The notes below the pieces were generated by a model. It searched no databases, was not told where the DNA came from, and worked only from the letters and a program-made list of their open reading frames with translations. A program made the translations under genes and the position numbers. A DNA stretch of 64,000 bases. Source: an uncultured candidatus Porisulfidus sp. Its GTDB lineage: Bacteria > Pseudomonadota > Gammaproteobacteria > Poriferisulfidales > Poriferisulfidaceae. Below, piece by piece: positions 1-12,860 of this stretch; positions within the stretch are counted from its first letter, which is position 1, and each line of letters begins with the position of its first letter. Location of the stretch: positions 1,344,001 to 1,408,000 of the forward strand of contig OZ241993.1 of assembly GCA_965204575.1 (NCBI GenBank), given 5' to 3'.

Positions 1-1377
1 CAGCCAGTCCCGGCCGAGCGCGCAACGCCGCAGCACGGCGTTGAGGTTCAGGCTCAGCACTGCCAGATGCCACCAGGCGGCGTTGGCCCCGAACCGGCCC
101 GACGGCATCAGGCCGCCGGCCAGGTCGTCCTTGAGCACCGCGTGCACCTCCTCGCCCCGCCCGCAGCGTTCATGCGCGAAGCGCACCAGTTCCGCCGTCG
201 ACATCGCCAGCCCCGCGCCCTCGTCGGGTTCGACCGGATGCGGCAGGTTGGTCAGATAGACCCGGCAGCGCCAGGCCGGGGCGCCGTCGCGGGTCGGCAA
301 CTCGTCGGGGTCGACGCCCAGCTCGCCCGGCAAGGCGCGCCGGGTGGCGACATGGCGCAGCAGCTGCCCGGCCTGCTTCGGCCGGGCGTTCCAGTCCGAG
401 ACGTGATCCAGCTCGGCGCAGTGCAGCGCCGAGCCGAGGAGCGGCTGCCACCAGTCCTCCGGCGCCCGCGCCAGGGACTGCTTCATCGCCTTGCCCAGGT
501 CCGCCGACACCACGAAGCCGATCACCCCGAAGCGGCGCAGCGCCGCCGGACGCGATGCCGGATCGTTGCAGAACCGCACTAGCGTCTTCTGGTAGCCGGC
601 GCCGTCGCTGCGCACCCACACCCGCCGGATCGTCGGCGGCAGACCCGACACCACCCGCTCCAGCAGCTCCCGGTTGCGCACCCCGGCCGGCACGTTGCCG
701 TCCCGGAACTCGGTGCCCAGCACCATCCCCAACTCCGGGCAGAACACCGACAGCGGCTGGTAGCCGCGCTCCCCCGGCACCTTGCCGGTCGCGCTGCGGT
801 ACGTGGGCCGGGCCTCGCGCTTGCCCGACGCCACCACCGTCGCGTCCAGGTCCAGGGTCAACTCCTCCAGTTGCTGAACCTCGATCAGGCGGTCCCGCAG
901 CCGCTCGGTCACCGCCTCGATCCGCCGCAACTCGTTCGCCGGTTCCGGCACCACCGCCCGCCCGGGCACCCGCGCCTGCGCCGCCGCCTCGTCCTGGAAA
1001 CGCCCCAACCAGTCCAACACCGAGCGCGCCGACGGAAAGGTCCGCTTGCGCCCGCCCCGGAAGCGCCGCGCCAGCTGCGCCGCCGGGATCCCCAGCACCG
1101 CCTCCTCGTAGGCGCGCACCAGCCGGCACAGGCTGGCGTCTTCCTCCAGCGCCGCCACGTCCGAGACCCGCTCGTGGCCGACCACGTTCAGCAACAGCAG
1201 GCTCAGCATCATCTGCCCGTCGTGCCAGCCCTGCCGGCCGGCCACCGGCACCGGCAGGTCGTGAAGCACGCCCGTGCGGCGCAGCAACTCCAGCCACAAG
1301 ACCAGCCCGCCGTGGGCGCTGGTCCGGGTCAGGTTCGGGTCGCCGTCGAGCGCGACCAAAGGGGAAAAACTGGACAT
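1..1377 (-). CDS. IS1380-family DDE transposase, 3' end runs off the window
   Basis: Not in the ORF track because no stop was seen in the window. Manual translation from ATG 1377 gives MSSFSPLVALDGDPNLTRTSAHGGL...LTLDLDATVVASGKREA...GYQPL...EFRDGNVPAG...VRSDGAGYQ, typical DDE_Tnp_1_4 motifs. Confidence 0.85.
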   Translation of the reverse strand, partial: MSSFSPLVALDGDPNLTRTSAHGGLVLWLELLRRTGVLHDLPVPVAGRQGWHDGQMMLSLLLLNVVGHERVSDVAALEEDASLCRLVRAYEEAVLGIPAAQLARRFRGGRKRTFPSARSVLDWLGRFQDEAAAQARVPGRAVVPEPANELRRIEAVTERLRDRLIEVQQLEELTLDLDATVVASGKREARPTYRSATGKVPGERGYQPLSVFCPELGMVLGTEFRDGNVPAGVRNRELLERVVSGLPPTIRRVWVRSDGAGYQKTLVRFCNDPASRPAALRRFGVIGFVVSADLGKAMKQSLARAPEDWWQPLLGSALHCAELDHVSDWNARPKQAGQLLRHVATRRALPGELGVDPDELPTRDGAPAWRCRVYLTNLPHPVEPDEGAGLAMSTAELVRFAHERCGRGEEVHAVLKDDLAGGLMPSGRFGANAAWWHLAVLSLNLNAVLRRCALGRDWL

Positions 1378-1590: not shown

Positions 1591-1938
1591 ATGGACATGG
1601 ATTTCAAGATTTTCTCCCTGGCGGCTTTATTCTCCGCCGCAGTGTTGCTGGTTTCCGTGTTGTCGGTCCCTGCGGGACCGGCGCACGCTTTCACGTCAAC
1701 CCCGGCCAATAAGGATCAAAGAACCATAGTCCAGAAGTGCCGTGAAGATTTCGACCGTTCTTCCGCAGGTTCAAGTTGTTCCAAGGTGACTTTCACGAAA
1801 GTCATGAACTACCGGTGCCGGATCGACTACACCTGCAGCAAGGCCGACGGCGGCACCCGCAAGGGCTGGAAGACGATTGACCCGGACGATTCCGCGTCTC
1901 TGAAAAACTGCGACGGCTGGCTCAAGACGAGTTGCTGA
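1591..1938 (+). CDS. Small secreted six-cysteine protein, paralog 1
   Basis: GAGG RBS, Sec signal ending AHA|FTS, mature pattern C-x12-C-x12-C-x5-C-x24-C-x7-C-stop. The start may be 1597. Confidence 0.8.
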   Translation: MDMDFKIFSLAALFSAAVLLVSVLSVPAGPAHAFTSTPANKDQRTIVQKCREDFDRSSAGSSCSKVTFTKVMNYRCRIDYTCSKADGGTRKGWKTIDPDDSASLKNCDGWLKTSC

Positions 1939-2016: not shown

Positions 2017-3204
2017 TCAGCTGTCGCGAAGGGCCTCGACCGGATCGAGCCGGGCGGCCCGGTAGGCGGGGTACAGGCCGAAGAAGATGCCGGCGGCGCT
2101 GGCCACGCCGACCCCCAGGCCGACGGCCAGCATCGAGACCTGGAACGCCCAGTCCGTAATCTGGCAGATGACCCAGGTTGCCCCGACTCCTGCCCCGACT
2201 CCGACCACGCCAGCCGCCAGCGACAGGACGATCGACTCGATCAGGAACTGGCCCTGGATATCGGCGCGGCGCGCGCCCAGGGCACGGCGGATGCCGATCT
2301 CCTGTCGTCGCTCGGACACCGAGACCAGCATGACGTTCATGACCCCGATGCCGCCGACGAGGAGCGAGATCCCGCCCACGGAACCCAAAAGAAGCGCGAA
2401 CAGCCGCATCTGCTTGTGCATCTGTTCGATCAGGTGCTCCGCGCTTCGCACGCGCACCTCGACGCCGGGCGACAGGCGCCGGAAGTAGTCGGCAATCTTC
2501 CTTTCCGCCACGACGTGATGGGTCCCCGGGCTCATGCGGGCCGTGATGTTGCGGATTTCCGGGCGGCGAAACACCCGCCGGGCGGTCGACAGGGGGATGA
2601 TGACGGCGCGGCTGACATCGAAGTCGCGCATGCCCTGCGGGGTTCGCCGCAATACGCCGACGATGGTGTACGCGTTCCCGGCCACCTCGAGGGCCTCGCC
2701 GATGAGGTTCCGGGTTCCGGCGTGGCGCAGGTCCGCGGCGATCTCCGGGCCGATGACGCAGAAGTACCGGCGCAAGTCGAGGTCGGAGATGTGGCGGCCG
2801 GATTCGAGTTTCAGCTTGTTGAGGTCGGGCAGGGTGGCGGTGGCCCCGATCAGCACCGCGTCTTTCGGTGCCCGCCGGGGCAGGGAGATCTGCGCGTATG
2901 AGTCCGCATAAGGAGCCGCCGCGGTGATGACGGAAAGCCTCGCGACGCCGCTGGCCTGCTCCGGGTCGATCGCGGAGAGGTCGCCCGAAGGACCGCGATG
3001 GTCAAGGCTGATGGTCAGGATGTCCGTGCCCAGTTCCTGGAATTGCTCGAGCGCCTCGTCCCGGGCGATGAGGCCCAGCGAAATCATCGCGATGACCGAG
3101 CCGATTCCGATCGCAATGCCGATCAGCGCAAGCAGGGTGCGTTGCTTGGCGGCGAGCAGGCTGCTCGCTGCTTCCTTGAGATTGGCCTGGACGAGAGGAA
3201 GCAT
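2017..3204 (-). CDS. MacB/FtsX-family ABC transporter permease
   Basis: RTLLALIGIAIGIGSVIAM TM1, large periplasmic domain, GGIGVMNVMLVSVSERRQEIGIRRALGA, YPAYRAARLDPVEALR. Confidence 0.93.
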   Translation of the reverse strand: MLPLVQANLKEAASSLLAAKQRTLLALIGIAIGIGSVIAMISLGLIARDEALEQFQELGTDILTISLDHRGPSGDLSAIDPEQASGVARLSVITAAAPYADSYAQISLPRRAPKDAVLIGATATLPDLNKLKLESGRHISDLDLRRYFCVIGPEIAADLRHAGTRNLIGEALEVAGNAYTIVGVLRRTPQGMRDFDVSRAVIIPLSTARRVFRRPEIRNITARMSPGTHHVVAERKIADYFRRLSPGVEVRVRSAEHLIEQMHKQMRLFALLLGSVGGISLLVGGIGVMNVMLVSVSERRQEIGIRRALGARRADIQGQFLIESIVLSLAAGVVGVGAGVGATWVICQITDWAFQVSMLAVGLGVGVASAAGIFFGLYPAYRAARLDPVEALRDS

Positions 3205-3216
3205 TCTGCCTTCCGG

Positions 3217-3963
3217 TCATTCGTCTCCCGAAACGGGGCCCGGCCTCTCCCGGGGCTCGACTTCGTTCAGGACGCCGTCGCGAATGCGGGTGCGCCGGGC
3301 ACACTGCTGGGCCACTTCCCGGTCATGCGTGATGATGATCCCGGTGAGCTGCTCCTCGGCGTTCAGCCGGATGAACAGTTGCATGATCTCGTCGCTGGTC
3401 TCGGCATCCAGGGCGCCGGTCGGTTCGTCAGCCAGCAGGATGTCCGGTTCGCCGACCAGGGCGCGGGCGATGGCGACGCGTTGCCGCTGCCCTCCGGACA
3501 TTTCGCCGGGGCGATGGCCTGCGCGGTCGCCGATGCCGACCTTGTCGAGCATTTCGCAGGCGCTGCGCTGCGCGACCGCCGAACCCGTGCCTCGGTACAC
3601 CAGCGGAACCGCCACATTCTCCCAGGCCGTCAGGCGCGGAAGCAGGTGGAAAGACTGGAACACGAAGCCGATGCTCGCGTTGCGCAGGGCGGAAAGATCG
3701 TCGTCGTCCAGCACGCCGACTTCCCGCCCATTCAGGGAAAAGGAGCCCGAATCCGACTGATCCAGAAGGCCTAGGATGTTCATCAGCGTGGACTTGCCGC
3801 AGCCCGACGGCCCCATGATCGACAGCAGGTCACCCGGGTACAGGTCGAGGCATACCCCTCGGAGGATCTCGGTGACGATCGGCCCCGTGGCATAACTCTT
3901 GCGGATGTCGACCAGGCTGAGTATGGCCTCCGCCGCCGGGCTCACGCTGTCCCGCCGGGTCAT
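3217..3963 (-). CDS. ABC ATP-binding protein, MacB/LolD type
   Basis: Walker A GPSGCGKST, signature MSGGQRQRVAIARAL, Walker B ILLADEPTGALD, ITHD. Confidence 0.95.
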   Translation of the reverse strand: MTRRDSVSPAAEAILSLVDIRKSYATGPIVTEILRGVCLDLYPGDLLSIMGPSGCGKSTLMNILGLLDQSDSGSFSLNGREVGVLDDDDLSALRNASIGFVFQSFHLLPRLTAWENVAVPLVYRGTGSAVAQRSACEMLDKVGIGDRAGHRPGEMSGGQRQRVAIARALVGEPDILLADEPTGALDAETSDEIMQLFIRLNAEEQLTGIIITHDREVAQQCARRTRIRDGVLNEVEPRERPGPVSGDE

Positions 3964-5810
3964 CGCGAGGGTCCCGGCATCAGGATTTCCTGGCCGGTCG
4001 TGATGCCGCTGACGATTTCCACTGAGTCCAGGGTGGTCATCCCGATCTCCACCTCTACCGGTCCGATTTCGCCGGAATCCCGGTCGCGGACCCGCAGCCA
4101 GGACCGGCCCTCGCGGAGTTCCACCGCCTCGACCGGGACCAGTAGCGCGTCTTCCTTTTCATAGACCAGGACCTCGACCCGGGCGGACATGCCCAGGCGC
4201 AGCAGCCGGTGCTGTTCCTCCGTCAGGGTTTCCACGACGGCGTTGACCTCGAACAGCGGCTGCCGTCGATGTTCGCGCACGGGAATGGCCTGCGAGGAAA
4301 TACTGTCGACCTTGCCGTGCAGCACGGTCCCGGGGAAGGCGTCCCCCACGATCCGCGCCGGTTGTCCCGGACGAATCCGCGTGACGTCCACCTCGTCCAC
4401 ATGGACGACCACGGCGATGCCGCTGGTGTCCCCGATGGTCAGCAGCAGGTCGCCCCGATCAACCAGCGCGCCCTTGACCAGCTTGTCGCTGGCCGTGCCC
4501 GTCTTCGCCTCTGCGCCGTCCTTCCGCCTCGGATGCATCACCACGCCGGCCGCCGGCGCGGTGACGGCGGCCTTGCGCAGGATTTCCTCGATGCTTTCCA
4601 GCTGGGTGCGCGCGTTCTCCAGTTCTAGCCGCGCTACCTTCAGCCCGGGGACGCCTTTGTCCAGAACGGCCTGAAGTTCCTGTTCCGCCGTCTGCAGGTC
4701 CAGCGACTGGTTGCGGTGTTCCCGCTCGGCGGCCTCGTACTCCGAGGTGGGGATGATGCCCCGCTCCAGCAGGAACGCGGTTTCCTCAAGCCGGCTGTTC
4801 AGGGATTCCAGCTTGAGCCGGCTTTTGCTCACGGCCTGGCGGACCCGGGATACCTCGGCATGGTTGGACCAGTTCTCGAATGTCTCGACCTGTTCGCGCG
4901 CCTTGAGGTAGGTCACTTCCGCCTCGCGGCGGGAAATCTGGACCTTGGCCACGTCCATGTCCAGCAAGGCCTGGCCCTGGGCGACCCGCTGGCCGGGGCG
5001 GACATGCACCGCGCCCACCTTTCCCTTCATCGGGGCGGCCACCTCGACTTCCCGCTTCGGCGCCAGTTGCCCGGTCATGGCGACCGTGGACGAGATCCGC
5101 CCGGGCTCGACCACCAGGCTGCGGGCCTGTTCCGGGGCGCCGTGCGCCGTGCCTGCGATGTCGCTCCCGGAAGCTGGGAGACCCGCGTCCGGGCGGCTGT
5201 CCCAGAAGTACAGCCCGATCGCGACGAACAGGACCGGGACGGCCAAGGCCGCGCCCACCCGGATGGTCGTGATCTTCTTCGAGGCGACGCCCAGTTTCTG
5301 GTTTGTCTCCTCCAGTTCCCGGTAGGCATTTCGGAGTTCGGCGTGCTGTCCCTCCACCTCCTTGGCCAAGCGGAGTTCCTTCTCCCGCAATTCCCGGATC
5401 TCGGAGATGTCGTTGAACATCACGATGACGCCGGTCCAGAGGGCTTCGCCGTCCCGTTCCTCCTTCAGGTACGTCGTCGCCACGGACAGGGAGCGGGTCT
5501 CGCCGCCGAGCGTCGCCTCGACCACGCGCTGGTGGACTGCGGTGGAGTCGTAGACGGCCTCGAAGATGATGTCGAGAAACTGGTCCAGGCCCTCCTTGTC
5601 GGCAAAAACCTCCCCGAACCGGCTTCCCACGACCGCGGCGCTGTCCAGGCCGAAGATGCTCTCCGCCGCCGCGTTGAAGCTGGTAATGATTCCGTCGGTG
5701 TCCAGGGACATGACCCCGCTGGCCACATTGTCCAAGATGTTCCGGTAGATCAGGCCGGAAGCCTCGCGGCTTTCGTCGGGAAGGGGAGGGCTGGAGCGGC
5801 GCGCGTTCAC
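3960..5810 (-). CDS. Periplasmic adaptor (MacA/HlyD-like MFP) with N-terminal PAS domain and coiled coil
   Basis: ILDNVASGVMSLDTDGIITSFNAAAESIFG...VIVMFNDISE (PAS), coiled coil, one TM, then lipoyl motifs (VAAPMKGKVGAVHVRPGQRV; VTAPAAGVV) and LRLGMSARV...LLVPVEAV. Confidence 0.88.
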   Translation of the reverse strand: MNARRSSPPLPDESREASGLIYRNILDNVASGVMSLDTDGIITSFNAAAESIFGLDSAAVVGSRFGEVFADKEGLDQFLDIIFEAVYDSTAVHQRVVEATLGGETRSLSVATTYLKEERDGEALWTGVIVMFNDISEIRELREKELRLAKEVEGQHAELRNAYRELEETNQKLGVASKKITTIRVGAALAVPVLFVAIGLYFWDSRPDAGLPASGSDIAGTAHGAPEQARSLVVEPGRISSTVAMTGQLAPKREVEVAAPMKGKVGAVHVRPGQRVAQGQALLDMDVAKVQISRREAEVTYLKAREQVETFENWSNHAEVSRVRQAVSKSRLKLESLNSRLEETAFLLERGIIPTSEYEAAEREHRNQSLDLQTAEQELQAVLDKGVPGLKVARLELENARTQLESIEEILRKAAVTAPAAGVVMHPRRKDGAEAKTGTASDKLVKGALVDRGDLLLTIGDTSGIAVVVHVDEVDVTRIRPGQPARIVGDAFPGTVLHGKVDSISSQAIPVREHRRQPLFEVNAVVETLTEEQHRLLRLGMSARVEVLVYEKEDALLVPVEAVELREGRSWLRVRDRDSGEIGPVEVEIGMTTLDSVEIVSGITTGQEILMPGPSR

Positions 5811-7330
5811 GGGGCCGCCTCCCGGTCTACGTCGCGGATCTCGATGTTCCAGGACTCCAGCGTCGTCCCCAGGGTGCGGTCCAGCGAGGTCACGGCCGTC
5901 TGATGGGCGATGATCGAGTCCAGTTCGTTGTTTTGCGCCGACACCAGGTCGTCCTCGAAGGTGACCAGGCGGAAGTTCGACGACAGGCCGAGGCGCAGTT
6001 TTTCCCGTTCGACCGCCACCTTCTGTTCCACGAGTTCGCGGGCAGAACGCGCGAGTTCCACCTGGCGGTGGGACAGTTCCACTTCCCGAAGCGCGTTGCT
6101 CACCTCGATGTCGACGCGCTGGCGCAGGTTCGCGAGACTGTTCCGGGCCTTCCGGAGGAGGGTCGTGGCCTGCACGTATTTCTGTTTTCTGGGGTCGGCC
6201 GCCGCCCAGATCGGAATGCTGAGGTCGAACCGGATGGCATGGTCGGTGCCGTCGAAATGGCCGGCGCCGCCCGGTGTCGAATCAATGCCGGCCAACCGGG
6301 CCGACAGCGTCGCCGAAAGGTCCCACAGGCGCTCGCTCTCGGCCGCCTCGACCCGGGCTTCCGCGATCTCGACGCCGAGGATCGCCTGCAGGTAGTCCGG
6401 GCGGTGCTGCCGGGCCTCCCCGATGCGGTCCGCCATTGCAGCCGGCCTCGGTTTGTCGGGAAGCGTCTCCGAGAGGGTGTCGGTCAGCCGGATCCGGGTG
6501 TGGCTGTCGATGTCGAGGACGTCGGTCAGCGCCAGGCGGGCGGCATCCAGGCGGTTGCGCGCGGCGACCAGTTGCAATTCGCGGCCGGCGATGTCGGCTT
6601 TCGTCTGGACCACGTCCCGCTCCGCCATCCGCCCGCTGCGCACGAGCAGTTCGTTCACCTCGAGCAGGCCCTGGGCGCGCTGGAGGGACTGGCTGCGGAT
6701 TTCTGCGCGATGTTCAGCCTGCATGTAGTCCCGATAGACATTGATGACCGACGTGACGACATCGATGATCGCCTGCTTGAGCGTGAGAACATTGCTCTTT
6801 TCCACGGCCTGGGCGATCCGCACCGAGGCCGTGTTGACCCCGACGCCCGCGCCGCGCAGCAGAGGCTGGGTGAACCTGAACACCAGCTCGTTGGAGTACC
6901 GCGACCGCGAGGGCGCGTCGCCGCCCCGGCGGATGCCGTCCCAGTCGAGGTTGAATTCCCCGCCGGTGGGGATGCGCAGCATGACGGTCGATCCCACGCC
7001 GGTTGCGGCAAGGTCCGAGGACGGCGCGGTGTGCGTCCGGTCAAAGTGAGAATCGAACGTCACATGCGGGCGGAACTTGTTCTCCGCCACTCGCAGGGCG
7101 AAACGTTCCGTGATGCGGTCCAGCCGCGCGCCGATCAGTTGTCGGTTGTTGCGGAGGGTCAGGAGGACAGCCTCTTCAAGAGAAAGGTCGAGGCGATTCG
7201 GTGGATCGCTTCCAGGCTCCGCCCCCAGCCCGGGGACGGAGGAACAAGACAGGCCGATTGCGACAATGGCAGGTTCGATCAAGCATCGCCTGCAACTTCG
7301 GCATGGTGCCTTGGGGGCTGCTGAGAACAT
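5807..7330 (-). CDS. TolC-family outer membrane factor
   Basis: LSLEEAVLLTLRNN, FTQPLLRG, two OEP-like repeats, EREKLRLGLSS; first gene of the transporter operon. Start codon uncertain. Confidence 0.9.
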   Translation of the reverse strand: MFSAAPKAPCRSCRRCLIEPAIVAIGLSCSSVPGLGAEPGSDPPNRLDLSLEEAVLLTLRNNRQLIGARLDRITERFALRVAENKFRPHVTFDSHFDRTHTAPSSDLAATGVGSTVMLRIPTGGEFNLDWDGIRRGGDAPSRSRYSNELVFRFTQPLLRGAGVGVNTASVRIAQAVEKSNVLTLKQAIIDVVTSVINVYRDYMQAEHRAEIRSQSLQRAQGLLEVNELLVRSGRMAERDVVQTKADIAGRELQLVAARNRLDAARLALTDVLDIDSHTRIRLTDTLSETLPDKPRPAAMADRIGEARQHRPDYLQAILGVEIAEARVEAAESERLWDLSATLSARLAGIDSTPGGAGHFDGTDHAIRFDLSIPIWAAADPRKQKYVQATTLLRKARNSLANLRQRVDIEVSNALREVELSHRQVELARSARELVEQKVAVEREKLRLGLSSNFRLVTFEDDLVSAQNNELDSIIAHQTAVTSLDRTLGTTLESWNIEIRDVDREAAP

Positions 7331-7385
7331 GGCGCGCGAGCGGGCGGTGAGGCACCCCTCCGCTACGCGGGGTCCGTCAGGTGAA

Positions 7386-7595
7386 TCAACAACCCAACTT
7401 GACCAAGCCGTTGCAGTTTTTCACTTGAAAAGCATTTGTCGGGCCCGCTGTCATTCCGCTCTTCACGAACACTGTTTCTCTGACCACGGCTTTGGAGTGC
7501 ATTGCCTGAATAGGGCATGGGTTGAGGACTGTTCCAGGAAACTCTCGTCCCGACAAGTGGAAGCCGCAGAACTACTTTCGCAGTTTGGGCATCAT
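7386..7595 (-). pseudogene. Decayed fourth paralog of the six-Cys protein family
   Basis: AGGAG plus ATG 7595 stops after 7 codons. One frame reads CESSSAASTCRDESF and another reads CPIQAMH...VKNCNGLVKLGC-stop. No signal peptide. Confidence 0.65.
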
Positions 7596-7644
7596 GTTCT
7601 CTTCTCCTGGTCCTCAACAGCCTGCCTGGGCTTGCCGCGCATGG

Positions 7645-7992
7645 TCAGCAACTCCCGACCTTCAGCACCAACCGACCGCAGTGGTGCAGGTTGCCGACAT
7701 CCCCTTTCGACACGCCGGTGACGCTGGCATCCCCACGGTTATCGCCGGTAGTGATCTGGTACTTGCATGTGGCGAAGAAATTGCACTTGTTGTGTTCCAC
7801 CCACGTATTCTTCAAATAACAGGTCTGGCTGGCAGGCGAACTGCTCCATGCCGAAGTGCAGTCACCGGTTGTGACGGACGGCGCGGAGGTGAACGCGTGC
7901 ACCGGCTCCGCAGGAATCGACAACGCGGAAGCCAGCAGCAATGCGGCGGAGAAAAAGGCCGCCAAGGAGAAAATATTGAAATTCATGCTCAT
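7645..7992 (-). CDS. Small secreted six-cysteine protein, paralog 2
   Basis: Signal peptide closely similar to paralog 1 (FNIFSLAAFFSAALLL...VHA|FTS); C-x12-C-x11-C-x5-C-x28-C-x9-C-stop. Confidence 0.82.
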   Translation of the reverse strand: MSMNFNIFSLAAFFSAALLLASALSIPAEPVHAFTSAPSVTTGDCTSAWSSSPASQTCYLKNTWVEHNKCNFFATCKYQITTGDNRGDASVTGVSKGDVGNLHHCGRLVLKVGSC

Positions 7993-8028
7993 ACCTCACG
8001 AGTGTATTCGTCAAGGAACTGGACAATA

Positions 8029-8046
8029 GGGATTCTAGCACGGAAA
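8029..8046 (-). promoter_or_regulatory. Putative extended -10 promoter of paralog 2 and possibly the exporter operon
   Basis: Same 18-mer as 1550-1567. Confidence 0.55.
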
Positions 8047-8175
8047 GCGGTTTTACGCGCCCTTTCGAGCCCTTTCTTATGGAAAGTGGTGGGGTCGCTC
8101 GGCAAAGCTGACTTATCAAGATACTGATACTTGTGGACATGGATCACCCGTCAAGTTAGGTATATATCCCTATCT

Positions 8176-8212
8176 ATCAGAAACCCAACCCTACGGGTTT
8201 GGGTTTTCTGAT
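8176..8212. repeat. Imperfect inverted repeat/hairpin
   Basis: ATCAGAAACCCAACCC-TAC-GGGTTTGGGTTTTCTGAT, with two bulged T. Confidence 0.7.
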
Positions 8213-8704
8213 GCAACTGTATAGAGAAAAGTCGAATGCGGCCCGTTCGCTTCGCTTGCTCTGCCGAGAACTGCTGGCAGAATACGCCCGGCATCGTCTC
8301 CGGCAGTTAGTCTTTGCGGTAATTGGCTGTCGCTCACTGTCGGCAGTATCCAACCGACATCATGGCTCCAGTCCAACCCGACTCGCAAAGCAAGGTTATC
8401 CAATGCCGGGCAGTCGGAAATCTGGCGGCAGGTGCACAAGCGCACCCGACCGAGGGCAGGGATCGGGTTTGCCGTCTGCCCGGCAGGGAAGCACCGCACG
8501 GCGGCCGGTCTCGGCCGCCGCGTCTTGGAAAACTCGAACTCGCGGTTATGAGCGTCCGCAATCGGGCAAGGGAACCCTGCCCGGATGCGCCTTTTTGCCT
8601 GTCTATTGGAGTGCGCATCGAGTTTTCCATACACCCCCTCACGGATCGAGGGCGGGCCGGCGCATCCAGCAGGGTTTTGGCTAGCCGGGGTGCTTCCCTT
8701 TCGG

Positions 8705-8755
8705 GCTATCTGGGCGTAAAAATTTTCTGAAAAATAAAAATCTGACCCAGATAGC
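8705..8755. repeat. 10-bp inverted repeat flanking an AT-rich core
   Basis: GCTATCTGGG (8705-8714) ... CCCAGATAGC (8746-8755). Confidence 0.55.
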
Positions 8756-8772
8756 GGTCTGACCTGCCGCCG

Positions 8773-8828
8773 GGCGCGAGCCGTGATAGGAAACCTATCA
8801 CCGGGCGGCCCGGATCAACCGGCTGGCC
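8773..8828. repeat. 56-bp direct repeat copy 1 with palindromic core
   Basis: Identical to 9746-9801; core GTGATAGGAAACCTATCAC at 8783-8801. Confidence 0.9.
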
Positions 8829-8927
8829 GGCTCGACTCCCTGCGCCCGGCGCGGGTCGGCGCGGGGCGTGGGCTGGGGCCGTGCTTCGCGAAGCGTGCAG
8901 ACCGGGCGGCAGGGGCGCGTCCGGCCA

Positions 8928-9218
8928 TTAGCAGACCTGAACCCCCAGGGCTCCCTTGCAGTTGTACAGTTTGTCGGCTTCCTCCGGCTTTGTCCTCTTG
9001 GCCGTGGAGGATAGCGTTTCATTTACCGAGCGGCACCACGCCATGATTTTGCAGTAGCCGCCGCCGACATCCGCATATTGAATATCGGTGCAACTCTGAT
9101 AGGCGGAACTCGCCTCAAACTTCTCCTTGCAGATGTCCACAAGGGGCCTGGGTTTCGGTGCCAGTCCGTATGCCGGAGACAAGGCCAGCATCAGGATCAG
9201 CGTGATGGTTTTCTTCAT
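8928..9218 (-). CDS. Small secreted six-cysteine protein, paralog 3
   Basis: AGGAGG RBS, MKKTITLILMLALSPAYG signal, C-x12-C-x12-C-x5-C-x24-C-x8-C-stop with FEASSAYQSC and LYNCKGAL. Confidence 0.82.
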   Translation of the reverse strand: MKKTITLILMLALSPAYGLAPKPRPLVDICKEKFEASSAYQSCTDIQYADVGGGYCKIMAWCRSVNETLSSTAKRTKPEEADKLYNCKGALGVQVC

Positions 9219-9483
9219 GGTTTGCCTCCTGGGTGAAAAATCAATCGCATGTTACCATCCTCTCCCCGTCAAACCCCGCACGGACATACGCGCCTGGAGC
9301 GACTGCCGACAGTCTAGCACGGCGGAATCAATCATCTGCACCATCCGCCAGGCCGCAGATTCGCGCCGCCGCGTCCTTGTCGATGCCATCGTCTCCGTTC
9401 GTCATGGACTGATACGCACGCGCCCGGCCTTGCAGATCGGGCGGCAAGGGCGCGGACCGGCGCGGGCCTGCATCGACCGGCCG

Positions 9484-9523
9484 GGGCATCATGCCGGCGC
9501 GAGCCGTGATAGGAAACCCATCA
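9484..9523. repeat. Direct repeat copy 2 (partial)
   Basis: GGGCATCATGCCGGCGCGAGCCGTGATAGGAAACCCATCA; one mismatch in the palindrome. Confidence 0.85.
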
Positions 9524-9745
9524 GCGGATGGCAACACAACCTAGACAAATCGCTGGCCAAGCCTGGCCGCGAAGCACACAATTCCATGCGCAAAGCGCAA
9601 CACAACCTAAACACCGCACGGAGAGCGTCTTACCAGAGCACCCACCCTGGAGAACTCAATTTGGAGACACTCTCGGCTTTGATACCGAACGACAAAACGG
9701 CAGAAATCGACCTAGAACCGACAAATCGGCTAGGGCATCAATGCC

Positions 9746-9801
9746 GGCGCGAGCCGTGATAGGAAACCTATCACCGGGCGGCCCGGATCAACCGGCTGGC
9801 C
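9746..9801. repeat. 56-bp direct repeat copy 3
   Basis: Identical to 8773-8828; palindrome at 9756-9774. Confidence 0.9.
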
Positions 9802-9811
9802 AGATCGAACC

Positions 9812-10135
9812 TGTCAAACCAAAGCTGAAATTTCCCCTTTTTCGGTTGGGCTGGCGAGCGGCAGCCCGGGATTTCATGGAAATCCCCCCGGGTCAAGCGC
9901 CGAGCCGCTCATCGGCTGGATTTTTCAAGGATTCACGCCGGTTGAAGAAGCGGATTGGGCGTTTCGCGCCTCAGCCAGCACGGCCGCCGCCTGACCCTTC
10001 TTCCGCCACGGATGATCCGGCGGCGGCCCGTAGCTCGGGCGGGCGGCCTGGGCCAGCTTTTGATCCACGATCCGGTTCAGGTCCTTGGTGTCCGCCGCCT
10101 GAACTGCGTCTCGCAGTCCTCCTTGCCGATCTGGT
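9812..10135 (-). mobile_element. 3' remnant of an IS1202 (ISNCY)-type element
   Basis: Minus-strand frame ends TKDLNRIVD...PPPDHPWRK, a typical transposase C-terminus, followed by the end ATTTCAGCTTTGGTTTGACA. Junction approximate. Confidence 0.6.
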
Positions 10136-10797
10136 TGACCCGGAACACGCTGTACCGTTGGCGGGCGCGTTACCAGGCGAAGGGGCTGCGGGGGCTTCGT
10201 CCGCGCAGCCGGCGTCCGCGGCGTTGCCGGCGGAAGCGTTGGGCGCCGGAGCTGACGCGGCGGCTGATCCAGTTGCGCCAGGCCCATCCGGGCTGGGGCA
10301 AGCAGAAGCTGGCGGTGCTGCTGCACCGCGAGGGCCACGCGGTCTCGGTGAGCACGGTCGGGCGGATGGTCAGCGAGCTGTTGCGACGGGGCCGGATCGC
10401 ACGCAGCCCCCGAAGAACCAAGCGCAGGCGGGCCTCCCGCCCGCGTCCGTGGGCGCAGCGCGGCTGGGGCGGGCTGGAGACGTGATCGGCAAGGTGGTGC
10501 AGGTCGACACGATGACGGTGACGCCCTATTACGGCTTCCGCTTCAAGCAGTTCACCGCGGTCGACGTGGCCAGCCGCTACTTGGTCGGGGCGCTGTACAG
10601 CCGGGCCACCGCGGCGTGCGCGGCCCGCTGCACGGAAATGGCGGCGGATCTGGAGGGGGCGCGGCGGCAGTGGGCCGAGTGGGAGGACACCTACAACCGG
10701 GTCCGGCCGCATCAAAGTCTCGGCCTGAAGACCCCGATTCAGTATATTAGGTCACGATCGTCAAGCAGGGCGTGTTCCCAAATGTCCTGAGCCCACA
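10136..10797 (+). pseudogene. Degraded IS481-like transposase with probable right end
   Basis: HTH TLYRWRARYQAKGLRGL, HPGWGKQKL, VSVSTVGR; frameshift near 10480; VQVDT...FTAVDVASR; part of the catalytic core deleted; YNRVRPHQSLGLKTP; ends in ...ACA. Confidence 0.8.
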
Positions 10798-10861
10798 ACT
10801 ACCCGAATGAACGCGCCCTCCTTTGCTAGAATAACGAACTGCGTCCTGATCTGGAATTTTC

Positions 10862-11998
10862 ATGGCTTGGAACGACAACGGTGGAAACCCGTGGCAGCGC
10901 AATGCGCGGCAGGGGCCGCCGGACCTGGATGACCTGTTCGGAAACCTGTTCCGGCGCCTGTTCGGTTCGGGCCGCAAGGGCGGCGGGGGCGGGGGCGGCC
11001 GCAAGTGGTCGGTCGGCACCGGCAGCGTCCTGCTCGTCCTCCTGATCCTGTGGCTGCTGTCCGGCTTCTACATCGTCGAGGCCAGCGAGCGTGGCGTCGT
11101 GCTCCGCTTCGGCAAGCACGAGCGCACCACCATGCCGGGGCCGGGATGGCACATCCCGTATCCGGTCGAAAGCGTCGAGGTGGTCAACGTGACCGGCAAC
11201 CGGAGCGTGGAGAAGCGGACCACCATGCTGACCCAGGACGAGAACATCGTCGAACTCAAGTTCTCGGTGCAGTACCGGCTCAAGAATGCCGAAGACTACC
11301 TGTTCAACGTCGAGAACCCGGACATCGAGTTCGACCGCGCCTGCCGCTTCAAGAGCACCATCTGCGGCGTGCTCGACAGTGCCATCCGCACCGTGGTGGG
11401 GCGCAACAACATGGACTTCATCCTGCGCGAGGGCCGCGCGGAAATCGCCAGCCGGACCATGGCGCTGATGCAGGAGATCCTCGACGCCTACGGCACCGGC
11501 ATCGAGATCCTGACGGTCAACCTGGAGGACTCGCAGCCGCCGAACGCGGTGCAGGACGCCTTCCAGGACGCGACCAAGGCGCGCGAGGACATGGAGCGAT
11601 TCAAGAACGAGGCGCAGGCTTACGCCAACGAGGTCCTGCCGCAGGCCCGCGGCGAGGCCGCGCGGATGCTGGAGGACGCCAAGGCCTACCGCGCCCAGGT
11701 GATTGCCAACGCCGAAGGCGAGGCGTCCCGCTTTACCCAGTTGCTGACCGAGTACCGCAAGGCGCCGGAAGTCACCCGCCAACGCATGTATCTGCAGGCA
11801 GTGGAGTCGGTCCTTTCCAATTCTTCCAAGGTGATGGTCGATGTCGACAAGGGGAGCAACATGCTGTTCCTGCCGCTGGACCGGATCCTGGAGCAACGCG
11901 GCCCGGCCCGGCCGCCGAATTCTTCATCCCTGGACCGGCAGGGAGGAAGTTCCTCAGGTTCCGGAAGTCTCGCCCCACGCTTGAGGGAGGGACGCTGA
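10862..11998 (+). CDS. hflK: FtsH protease modulator HflK
   Basis: MAWN...NPW...GPPDLD N-terminus, SPFH domain, APEVTRQRMYL. Confidence 0.95.
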   Translation: MAWNDNGGNPWQRNARQGPPDLDDLFGNLFRRLFGSGRKGGGGGGGRKWSVGTGSVLLVLLILWLLSGFYIVEASERGVVLRFGKHERTTMPGPGWHIPYPVESVEVVNVTGNRSVEKRTTMLTQDENIVELKFSVQYRLKNAEDYLFNVENPDIEFDRACRFKSTICGVLDSAIRTVVGRNNMDFILREGRAEIASRTMALMQEILDAYGTGIEILTVNLEDSQPPNAVQDAFQDATKAREDMERFKNEAQAYANEVLPQARGEAARMLEDAKAYRAQVIANAEGEASRFTQLLTEYRKAPEVTRQRMYLQAVESVLSNSSKVMVDVDKGSNMLFLPLDRILEQRGPARPPNSSSLDRQGGSSSGSGSLAPRLREGR

Positions 11999-11999
11999 G

Positions 12000-12860
12000 A
12001 TGAACCTGCAGGTCCGCCTGATCCTGGCTGCCATCGTGGTGGTGCTGGTCTGGGCCTCTACGTTCTACGTACGCCAGACCGAGACGGCGATCGTGTTCCA
12101 GCTCGGCGATATCCGGCGCGCAGGCTTGGAGCCGGGGCTGCACTTCCAGATGCCGTTCATCAACAACGTGCAGAAATTCGACGCCCGGGTGCTGTCGCTG
12201 GATTCCAAGCCGGAGCTGTTCCTGACCAGCGAGAAGAAGAACGTGTCGGTGGACTTCTTCGTCAAGTGGCGGATCAAGAACGTCAGCCAATACTTCCGTG
12301 CCACCCAGGGCGACCGTGCACGTGCCGAGGGGCGGTTGACCCAGATCGTCAAGGACGGGCTCAAGAACCAGTTCGGCGTGCGCACCATCCAGCAGGCGAT
12401 CTCCGGCGAGCGGCGCGAGATCATGGACGTGCTGCAGGTGCAATCCAACCGCAACGCGAGCGAGCTTGGCATCAAAGTGGTGGATGTCCGCATCAGCCGC
12501 ATCGAGTTGCCGGACGAGGTCAGTGATTCGGTCTATCGCCGGATGCGCGCGGAGCGCAGCCGGACGGCCAAGGACTTTCGCGCCCGCGGCCAGGAGACGG
12601 CGGAACGGATTCGCGCCGACGCCGACCGCCAGCGCACGGTGATTCAGGCCGAGGCGTACCGCGACGCGGAGAAGATTCGCGGCGAGGGCGATGCCCAATC
12701 CACCGAGATCTATGCCGAGGCCTACAACCAGGATCCCGAGTTCTTTGCGTTCACCCGAAGCCTGAACGCCTACGTCAATACGTTCCGCGACAAGGGCGAC
12801 GTGCTGGTGATGGAACCGGACTCGGAGTTCTTCCAGTACTTCAAGCAACTCCAGAAGTAA
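12000..12860 (+). CDS. hflC: FtsH protease modulator HflC
   Basis: SPFH domain, RMRAER, DPEFFAFTRSL; follows hflK. Confidence 0.95.
   Translation: MNLQVRLILAAIVVVLVWASTFYVRQTETAIVFQLGDIRRAGLEPGLHFQMPFINNVQKFDARVLSLDSKPELFLTSEKKNVSVDFFVKWRIKNVSQYFRATQGDRARAEGRLTQIVKDGLKNQFGVRTIQQAISGERREIMDVLQVQSNRNASELGIKVVDVRISRIELPDEVSDSVYRRMRAERSRTAKDFRARGQETAERIRADADRQRTVIQAEAYRDAEKIRGEGDAQSTEIYAEAYNQDPEFFAFTRSLNAYVNTFRDKGDVLVMEPDSEFFQYFKQLQK

Follow-up and report, generated by a model that had tools for sequence, protein, structure and literature searches.

Can an exporter that spans the cell envelope be switched from inside the cell by a sensor built into its own adaptor protein? This question is raised by a four-gene operon in a 64,000-nucleotide stretch of DNA from an uncultured candidatus Porisulfidus sp. 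(contig OZ241993.1, positions 1,344,001 to 1,408,000), here called the window. Tripartite pumps are usually described as being regulated at the level of transcription, and their adaptors as passive or as acting in the periplasm only. The adaptor gene of this operon encodes a PAS domain and a coiled coil in front of the membrane anchor. We conclude that its product is probably the periplasmic adaptor of a MacAB-TolC-like tripartite exporter that carries its own cytoplasmic signal-input module.

Architecture and conservation of the fused adaptor

The original prediction concerned positions 5270-5750 on the minus strand, which correspond to residues ~21-180 of the 616-amino-acid (aa) product of open reading frame (ORF) 3960-5810. 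It described about 115 aa of PAS ending in DISE, plus a coiled coil, ahead of the single transmembrane (TM) helix of a MacA-type adaptor. Every one of these details was confirmed by Pfam, TIGR00229 and an AlphaFold2 model. The protein can be divided as follows (identity, mean pairwise identity of 23 sequences; pLDDT, predicted local distance difference test):

5754..5810, minus strand: variable N-terminal tail, residues 1-19 (identity 0.24; pLDDT <50 at residues 1-18)
5406..5753, minus strand: cytoplasmic PAS domain with DISE end, residues 20-135 (Pfam, AlphaFold2 model; identity 0.51)
5268..5405, minus strand: signalling coiled coil, residues 136-181 (heptad table; motif kept in variants)
5196..5267, minus strand: single TM helix, unbroken from the coiled coil, residues 182-205 (Kyte-Doolittle, model)
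5115..5195, minus strand: weakly conserved periplasmic linker, residues 206-232 (identity 0.19; pLDDT <50 at residues 205-227)
3963..5114, minus strand: periplasmic MacA-like adaptor, residues 233-616 (Pfam, TIGR01730, fold match)

Four PAS families of Pfam (PF00989, PF08448, PF13188 and PF13426, that is PAS, PAS_4, PAS_8 and PAS_9) exceeded their gathering scores within residues 22-138. PF00989 reached an E value of 2.7e-10 and 40.7 bits on this region (cut-off 22.6), and TIGR00229 ('PAS domain S-box') scored 42 bits against a cut-off of 22.9. The domain ends in the motif D134-I135-S136-E137. In the AlphaFold2 model, which was built from a 23-sequence alignment and has a mean pLDDT of 81, a PAS fold at residues 13-134 is followed by one unbroken helix (136-203), a disordered segment (205-227) and the adaptor with its long alpha-hairpin. 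The PAS part of the model shows the five-stranded sheet with flanking helices by which PAS domains are recognised (pLDDT ~88).

Seven heptads at residues 135-183 run directly into the TM helix, the arrangement of a signalling coiled coil. The a positions are I, R, A, H, Y, N and S, and the hydrophobic d positions I, E, V, L, L, L and I. Conserved and mostly polar residues (R142, A149, H156, Y163, N170) occupy the a layer in the 23-sequence alignment, H156 being invariant and R142, Y163 and N170 nearly so, and the helix carries the motif H-x-E-L-x-x-A-Y/F-x-x-L/I-E. Its length is also fixed in most of the family: among 162 family-length proteins with a DIxE-type motif and a TM helix, the histidine lies 19 residues past DIxE in 123 and 12 residues past it in one, while the strict histidine pattern is absent in 38. 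A polar core combined with a fixed length would be expected of a switching helix and not of a mere spacer. The sequence H-A-E-L-R near H156 was also considered as a remnant of a histidine kinase and rejected, as a Pfam search of residues 1-200 at E<=10 returned PAS families only.

Only one hydrophobic segment was detected in Kyte-Doolittle windows (~182-205), which gives the protein the single anchor of MacA-type adaptors. This anchor lies away from the N-terminus because the added PAS/coiled-coil module precedes it. The periplasmic part comprises the lipoyl, long alpha-hairpin, beta-barrel and membrane-proximal domains of the adaptor fold. Residues 233-612 match the HlyD-family models HlyD_D23, HlyD_3 and Biotin_lipoyl_2 of Pfam, and TIGR01730 was exceeded with 107.3 bits (cut-off 94.9). 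The closest solved relatives by sequence profile are MacA structures (9qgy/3fpp/5nik, E ~1e-24), and the closest fold match in Foldseek is MacA 9qgy_G (E 1.6e-25, TM score 0.71 on the target). MacA is thus the nearest solved relative both by profile and by fold, and the label 'MacA-type' was well chosen. A MacB-type ATP-binding cassette (ABC) transporter and an outer-membrane factor are encoded alongside.

In sequence, conservation of the PAS module matches that of the periplasmic adaptor. Averaged over all pairs of the 23-sequence alignment, identity reaches 0.51 in the PAS domain, 0.56 in the coiled coil and 0.55 in the adaptor, against 0.24 in the tail, 0.37 in the TM helix and 0.19 in the periplasmic linker.

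The reality of the junction was assessed in sequencing runs from three studies. Single contigs of runs X1, X4 and X5 span positions 3900-6100 without any indel; the X1 contig shows 0 differences and is possibly the source of the assembly, and those of X4 and X5, from two other studies, have 49 substitutions each. A word-indexed search retrieved 227 homologues, and 116 of the 120 that were listed have a PAS-family Pfam match together with the adaptor families, the other four being proteins of 480-514 aa without PAS. With the first 200 residues as query, HMMER gave matches at E<=1e-10 in 678 cluster representatives. The 148 newly listed of these (representatives of 50%-identity clusters) comprise 91 proteins with PAS, coiled coil/TM and adaptor in this order, 17 N-terminal fragments with PAS and coiled coil/TM, 39 with PAS matches only and one with PAS plus adaptor. 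A metagenome scan added 77 more loci, and a scan of genome contigs with the single protein gave 3 loci, one of them weak. As contigs of three studies and many homologues from other sources have the same architecture, the fusion is not a misjoin and not unique to this assembly. We therefore regard it as virtually certain that it is genuine and a trait of the family.

Two homologues differ in their C-terminal part. In P0166 (1064 aa) the PAS adaptor runs on into a MacB_PCD permease domain, which is either an adaptor-permease fusion or a read-through gene call, and P0167 (896 aa) has extra C-terminal sequence without a Pfam match.

The adaptor gene is the second of four genes arranged head to tail, all on the minus strand:

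5807..7330, minus strand: TolC-like outer-membrane factor, 507 aa, first gene of the operon (Pfam OEP, E 8.7e-36)
3960..5810, minus strand: PAS / coiled-coil / TM / MacA-type adaptor, 616 aa plus stop
3217..3963, minus strand: MacB/LolD-like ABC ATPase, 248 aa (Pfam ABC_tran, E 1.4e-32)
2017..3204, minus strand: MacB-type permease, 395 aa (Pfam MacB_PCD and FtsX, E 5e-30 and 7.8e-22)

The adaptor gene starts with GTG, preceded by GGGAGG, in a 4-base overlap (GTGA) with the stop codon of the upstream TolC-like gene, and its own stop overlaps the start of the ABC ATPase gene. The TolC-like factor scored 91.6 bits with TIGR01844 of NCBIfam, which is under the cut-off. The top NCBIfam matches of the ATPase are the nucleotide-binding part of MacB and LolD, and 36 operon-linked homologues show no variation at its Walker A, Q-loop, signature, Walker B and H-loop positions. 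The permease aligns with residues 258-645 of MacB. In this exporter, ATPase and MacB-type permease are separate proteins of a type VII ABC system, joined by a TolC-like duct. The order outer-membrane protein (OMP), adaptor, ABC, FtsX was found in 42 of the 46 loci with enough DNA on both sides; taken singly, ABC follows the adaptor in 68/73 loci, FtsX follows ABC in 53/55 and OMP precedes the adaptor in 55/62 (all counts include near-duplicate loci).

Some genomes carry the whole pump operon twice. L001 and L002 are two contigs of one metagenome-assembled genome (MAG), and L040 contains two tail-to-tail operon copies (2463-4826, 7479-11545) separated by small cysteine-rich genes and a STAS gene; in one of these two copies no ABC gene is detectable. 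Within the TolC-like gene of the window, the summed contig depth of runs X1 and X2 rises to as much as 407 at positions 5898-6045, compared to 24-33 around them. Diverged short contigs match this interval, which points to a similar segment in other abundant DNA of X1 and X2.

Exchange of input domains and genomic neighbourhood

The sensor in front of the helix varies across the family. Among homologous adaptors of the same four-gene operon type, a GAF domain takes the place of PAS in L050, L056, L059 and L087; PAS is followed by GAF in L064, L067 and L085; and a cyclic nucleotide monophosphate (cNMP)-binding domain precedes PAS in P0190, P0198 and P0250. No sensor is present in L036, L052, L078, L075 and L088, which have a tail of ~65 residues only. 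Every form with a sensor retains the helix motif, which the sensor-less L036 lacks. In a tree of 83 rows restricted to the periplasmic part, obtained by a quick IQ-TREE search and given a midpoint root only to draw it, the variant forms are nested among PAS-bearing rows. The sensor-less L036 and L052 are sister to the PAS-bearing L013 (Shimodaira-Hasegawa-like approximate likelihood ratio test, SH-aLRT, 99), and the GAF and PAS plus GAF rows are grouped with PAS rows in a 13-row group. Given this nesting, the sensor was swapped or lost repeatedly on one adaptor lineage.

For 77 loci, we also clustered the ORFs that lie up to 5 kb away from the operon. A STAS protein was found in 14 and an RsbW-type HATPase_c_2 protein in 11 of them, a PP2C (SpoIIE) phosphatase with dCache-HAMP in four (L053, L066, L069, L090) and a sigma-54 response regulator in seven. 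At nine loci (L032 at 5751-6517, L028, L034, L035, L037, L053, L055, L066 and L068), genes for a STAS protein (~110 aa) and an RsbW-like kinase (~140 aa) immediately precede the OMP gene and share its strand, and no sigma factor gene was seen there. Judging from this gene order, the STAS/RsbW-like pair is apparently wired to the pump. The window's own genome encodes one RsbW-like protein and three tandem STAS proteins (G000:C1:90920-91300, 94817-96046), ~1.25 Mb away from the pump.

The operon in the window is flanked by three paralogous genes for small proteins of 96-115 aa with six conserved cysteines:

1591..1938, plus strand: sC1, small secreted six-cysteine protein (signal-peptide-like N-terminus, 6 Cys, paralogy)
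7645..7992, minus strand: sC2, small secreted six-cysteine protein (signal-peptide-like N-terminus, family alignment)
8928..9218, minus strand: sC3, small secreted six-cysteine protein (signal-peptide-like N-terminus, family alignment)

The family follows the pattern C-x(3)-[WFY]-x(2,3)-S-x-A-x(3)-C ... C-x(5,6)-C ... N-C-x-G-x(5,6)-C. No Pfam or NCBIfam model matched above threshold, and sC1 gave one sub-threshold NCBIfam match (17.4 bits vs 44). Of the 16 rows that make up the window's clade (SH-aLRT 99), 13 have sC genes adjacent to the pump; elsewhere in the tree a single locus has one (L047). The highest copy number beside a pump is five, in L001. The clade rows without such a gene are L022, a 2.2-kb contig, and L023 and L051, which have none within the available DNA. 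Mature sC1 was modelled at pLDDT ~96, and its fold found no Foldseek match at E<=0.001. The best match was cyanovirin-N (E 0.019, 56 columns), and Atlas gave clusters of the cyanovirin-N homology (CVNH) family at 0.76; both are under the confidence marks, so that a cyanovirin-N-like fold of the modelled protein is a weak lead only. By analogy with the enterotoxin STII for MacAB-TolC, the sC proteins are candidate cargo of the pump in the window's clade.

The window's genome (1.82 Mb, one contig) contains one copy of the adaptor family. Five of the 15 other genomes of the genus also have the family, at 35-74% identity and with copies in different subclades of the tree, and it was found in none of 25 genomes of the order's other families. 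In a sample of 400 genomes of the class, for which three candidates were scored per genome, matches at E<=1e-60 were limited to the window's genome and a single congener. The few names attached to homologues are Nitrospinae/Nitrospinota, Acidobacteria and gammaproteobacterial MAGs. PLSDB plasmids contributed 137 records, all sensor-less, with ~30% identity over residues ~188-613 and none covering 80% of the query. On one side of the operon, a DDE_Tnp_1_4 transposase gene (1-1377, minus strand) runs off the start of the window; on the other, ORF 9528-10790 (plus strand) ends with the last part of an integrase core (rve_3), and the G+C content falls to 0.56-0.59 around 7000-9000. Transposase, integrase fragment, G+C dip and the patchy distribution in the genus together suggest a mobile island, and this context is compatible with horizontal spread. 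The ORFs at 10862-11998 and 12000-12860 (both plus strand) lie next to each other beyond the island and encode what look like the membrane-protease regulators HflK and HflC; as ordinary housekeeping genes, they would presumably mark the return to the core genome.

Proposed signal input to the pump and competing readings

The conservation of the PAS/coiled-coil module, the exchange of domains on the same helix and the co-operonic STAS/RsbW-like pair in a subclade all argue for a role in signal input. On these comparisons of sequences, the module is likelier than not to be a regulatory input to the pump. The original prediction had gone further, with a ligand or redox state as input and pump assembly or ATPase activity as output; the signal-input role is backed by our comparison, whereas these two ends of the pathway are still conjecture.

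A specific route from PAS to pump can be proposed tentatively. The signal received by the PAS domain would come from inside the cell, as a small ligand or through a protein partner. This signal would change the packing, register or rotation of the paired helices, as in the PAS/coiled-coil inputs of sensor kinases. Since the same paired helices form the TM anchors of the adaptor, the change could reach the membrane-proximal domain and the TM helices of the permease packed against them. As a consequence, the stimulation of the MacB-type ATPase by the adaptor would be raised or lowered, the closure of the adaptor ring would be altered, or both, and export would be gated at the protein level. Six-cysteine proteins exported by Sec would enter the pump from the periplasm and leave the cell by the TolC-like duct, in the way STII does with MacAB-TolC.

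Carried to its end, this proposal makes the adaptor a one-component receiver and the pump a gated secretion valve, through which the release of small, disulfide-rich periplasmic proteins may be timed by the internal state of the cell without transcription; we put this forward as a speculative possibility. It is equally tentative that in such a valve the cue re-registers the polar-core coiled coil, re-pairs the TM anchors and so switches both ATPase stimulation and ring closure. Sister lineages might read their cue by GAF or cNMP-binding domains or receive it via a STAS/RsbW-like switch, and the small proteins released could perhaps be CVNH-like lectins. The gated valve, if true, might stand for a new class of regulation in which envelope-spanning exporters are controlled post-translationally and from the inside out, a suggestion we make with reserve. 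Some exporters of this kind would then be switched directly from inside the cell. The adaptor would offer a tractable system for the control of an ABC motor by transmembrane signalling through a single helix, as well as a natural ligand-gated secretion module, and the small secreted proteins of the window's clade suggest a defined cargo family that can be tested.

Several observations weigh against a signal-input role. No ligand, cofactor signature or partner of the window's PAS domain was identified: among its conserved positions we recognised no haem, flavin or chromophore motif, and the invariant residues G40, N46, A49, F78, L108 and F132 are presumably general positions of the PAS fold. 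Simple dimerisation is another role of PAS and GAF domains. Adaptors are regarded as hexamers around a permease dimer, an arrangement that dimeric coiled coils would have to accommodate. Sensor-less relatives occur inside the family and on plasmids of named bacteria, and the pump can therefore work without the module. The tree behind the domain exchange is a quick search with an arbitrary root. Many of the STAS-linked loci are close relatives and therefore perhaps represent four to eight independent lineages, and no STAS or kinase gene lies beside the window's own operon. The cargo link is one of gene neighbourhood only, and most loci under ~44% identity have no sC gene.

Some of these observations would fit a purely structural module, a constitutive oligomerisation clamp that carries no signal and serves to pair adaptor protomers or to stabilise the complex of adaptor and permease. 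Dimerisation is common among PAS and GAF domains, the heptads agree with a stable parallel coiled coil, and both the missing cofactor or ligand signature and the sensor-less relatives, in which the core pump works without the module, speak for a clamp. But a clamp leaves unexplained why P0190, P0198 and P0250 have an added cNMP-binding domain, why the polar a-layer with its invariant His and near-invariant Asn is conserved in a helix that otherwise forms a coiled coil, and why a STAS/RsbW-like pair shares the operon in some loci; we consider it rather unlikely. The direction of signalling could also be reversed, with the adaptor reporting the periplasmic state of the pump (cargo load, TolC engagement) and the PAS domain serving as output to a cytoplasmic partner. 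This would resemble the MacB-family BceAB transporters, which sense flux together with kinases. A continuous helix could transmit either way, and STAS proteins, RsbW-like kinases, PP2C with dCache-HAMP and sigma-54 response regulators recur beside the operon in some clades. However, PAS, GAF and cNMP-binding domains are typical input domains and interchangeable here, and no conserved partner gene accompanies the window's clade, which makes such outside-in reporting improbable.

That the PAS domain instead binds a substrate in the cytoplasm and triggers recruitment of the duct, as in HlyD, appears very unlikely. The cytoplasmic domain of HlyD-type adaptors reportedly takes part in substrate-induced assembly, which would speak for it. 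But the window's adaptor reached 48.8 bits with TIGR01843, far below the cut-off of 208.65, its candidate cargo proteins carry predicted signal peptides, and a MacB-type transporter takes its cargo in the periplasm, having no transmembrane substrate path according to PMC5985334. An artefact, in which the PAS gene was misjoined to, or read through into, the adaptor gene, has a negligible chance of being true and is already refuted: we found no point supporting it, the frame is open throughout without stops and crosses the junction on contigs of three studies without indels, and hundreds of proteins from other sources share the architecture.

Relation to known systems

The module itself is most similar to the PAS modules of sensor histidine kinases, in which a DIxE-type end likewise leads straight into a heptad helix of fixed length; the best NCBIfam match of the PAS domain is AtoS (E 8.8e-17). 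In the kinases this helix continues into the dimerisation and histidine phosphotransfer (DHp)/kinase domain, whereas here it leads to a TM helix and a periplasmic adaptor, and no HisKA or other output family was found in residues 1-200 with Pfam at E<=10.

A cytoplasmic N-terminal part is also present in HlyD of haemolysin type I secretion, where it helps to control assembly of the export channel. The window's adaptor likewise has a cytoplasmic N-terminal part, but the class of the ABC partner and the side from which cargo is taken (the cytoplasm for HlyD) differ. An identity as type I secretion HlyD was considered and rejected on the TIGR01843 score given above and because the partner is a MacB_PCD plus FtsX permease. 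The plasmid- and chromid-borne HlyD-family adaptors of Rhizobium, Azospirillum, Rahnella, Pantoea and Ralstonia are sensor-less; they are ~30% identical in the periplasmic part and have no match to the PAS/coiled-coil region.

The closest system overall is MacAB-TolC of E. coli (5NIK, 9QGY, 3FPP). MacA and the window's adaptor have in common the single TM anchor, the periplasmic fold, the MacB-type partner and the TolC-like duct. The cytoplasmic tail of MacA is short, and MacA reportedly stimulates the MacB ATPase, with the membrane-proximal domain said to be the switch. The two adaptors are only ~21% identical, and the ~180 extra cytoplasmic residues (PAS plus coiled coil) are found here and not in MacA, which has 371 aa in 5NIK. 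Moreover, ATPase and permease are fused in MacB and encoded by separate genes in the window's operon. The MacA equivalog NF008606 scored 70.7 bits (cut-off 342); the adaptor, a member of the MFP/HlyD superfamily, is therefore MacA-like and not an orthologue of MacA. As described in PMC5985334, MacB has no transmembrane substrate path, its ATP-driven movements do periplasmic work, and periplasmic substrates are expelled together with MacA and TolC; the same paper names STII as a small MacAB-TolC substrate that depends on Sec and Dsb.

Our search found no literature on MacA-type adaptors bearing PAS, GAF or cNMP-binding domains, most subscription journals lying outside its range. An adaptor with a modular cytoplasmic sensor is apparently an undescribed variant of the MacAB-TolC design. 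The nearest printed precedent is a set of proteins in PMC4452313 combining GAF with HlyD/biotin_lipoyl domains in secondary SecA_DEAD loci, for which the authors suggested a regulatory and sensory role in 2015. Compared by description only, those loci have SecA_DEAD and Peptidase_M50-like HlyD neighbours and not the OMP, adaptor, ABC and FtsX genes found here, but they share with the window's adaptor its defining feature, a cytoplasmic-type sensor fused to an adaptor of the HlyD family.

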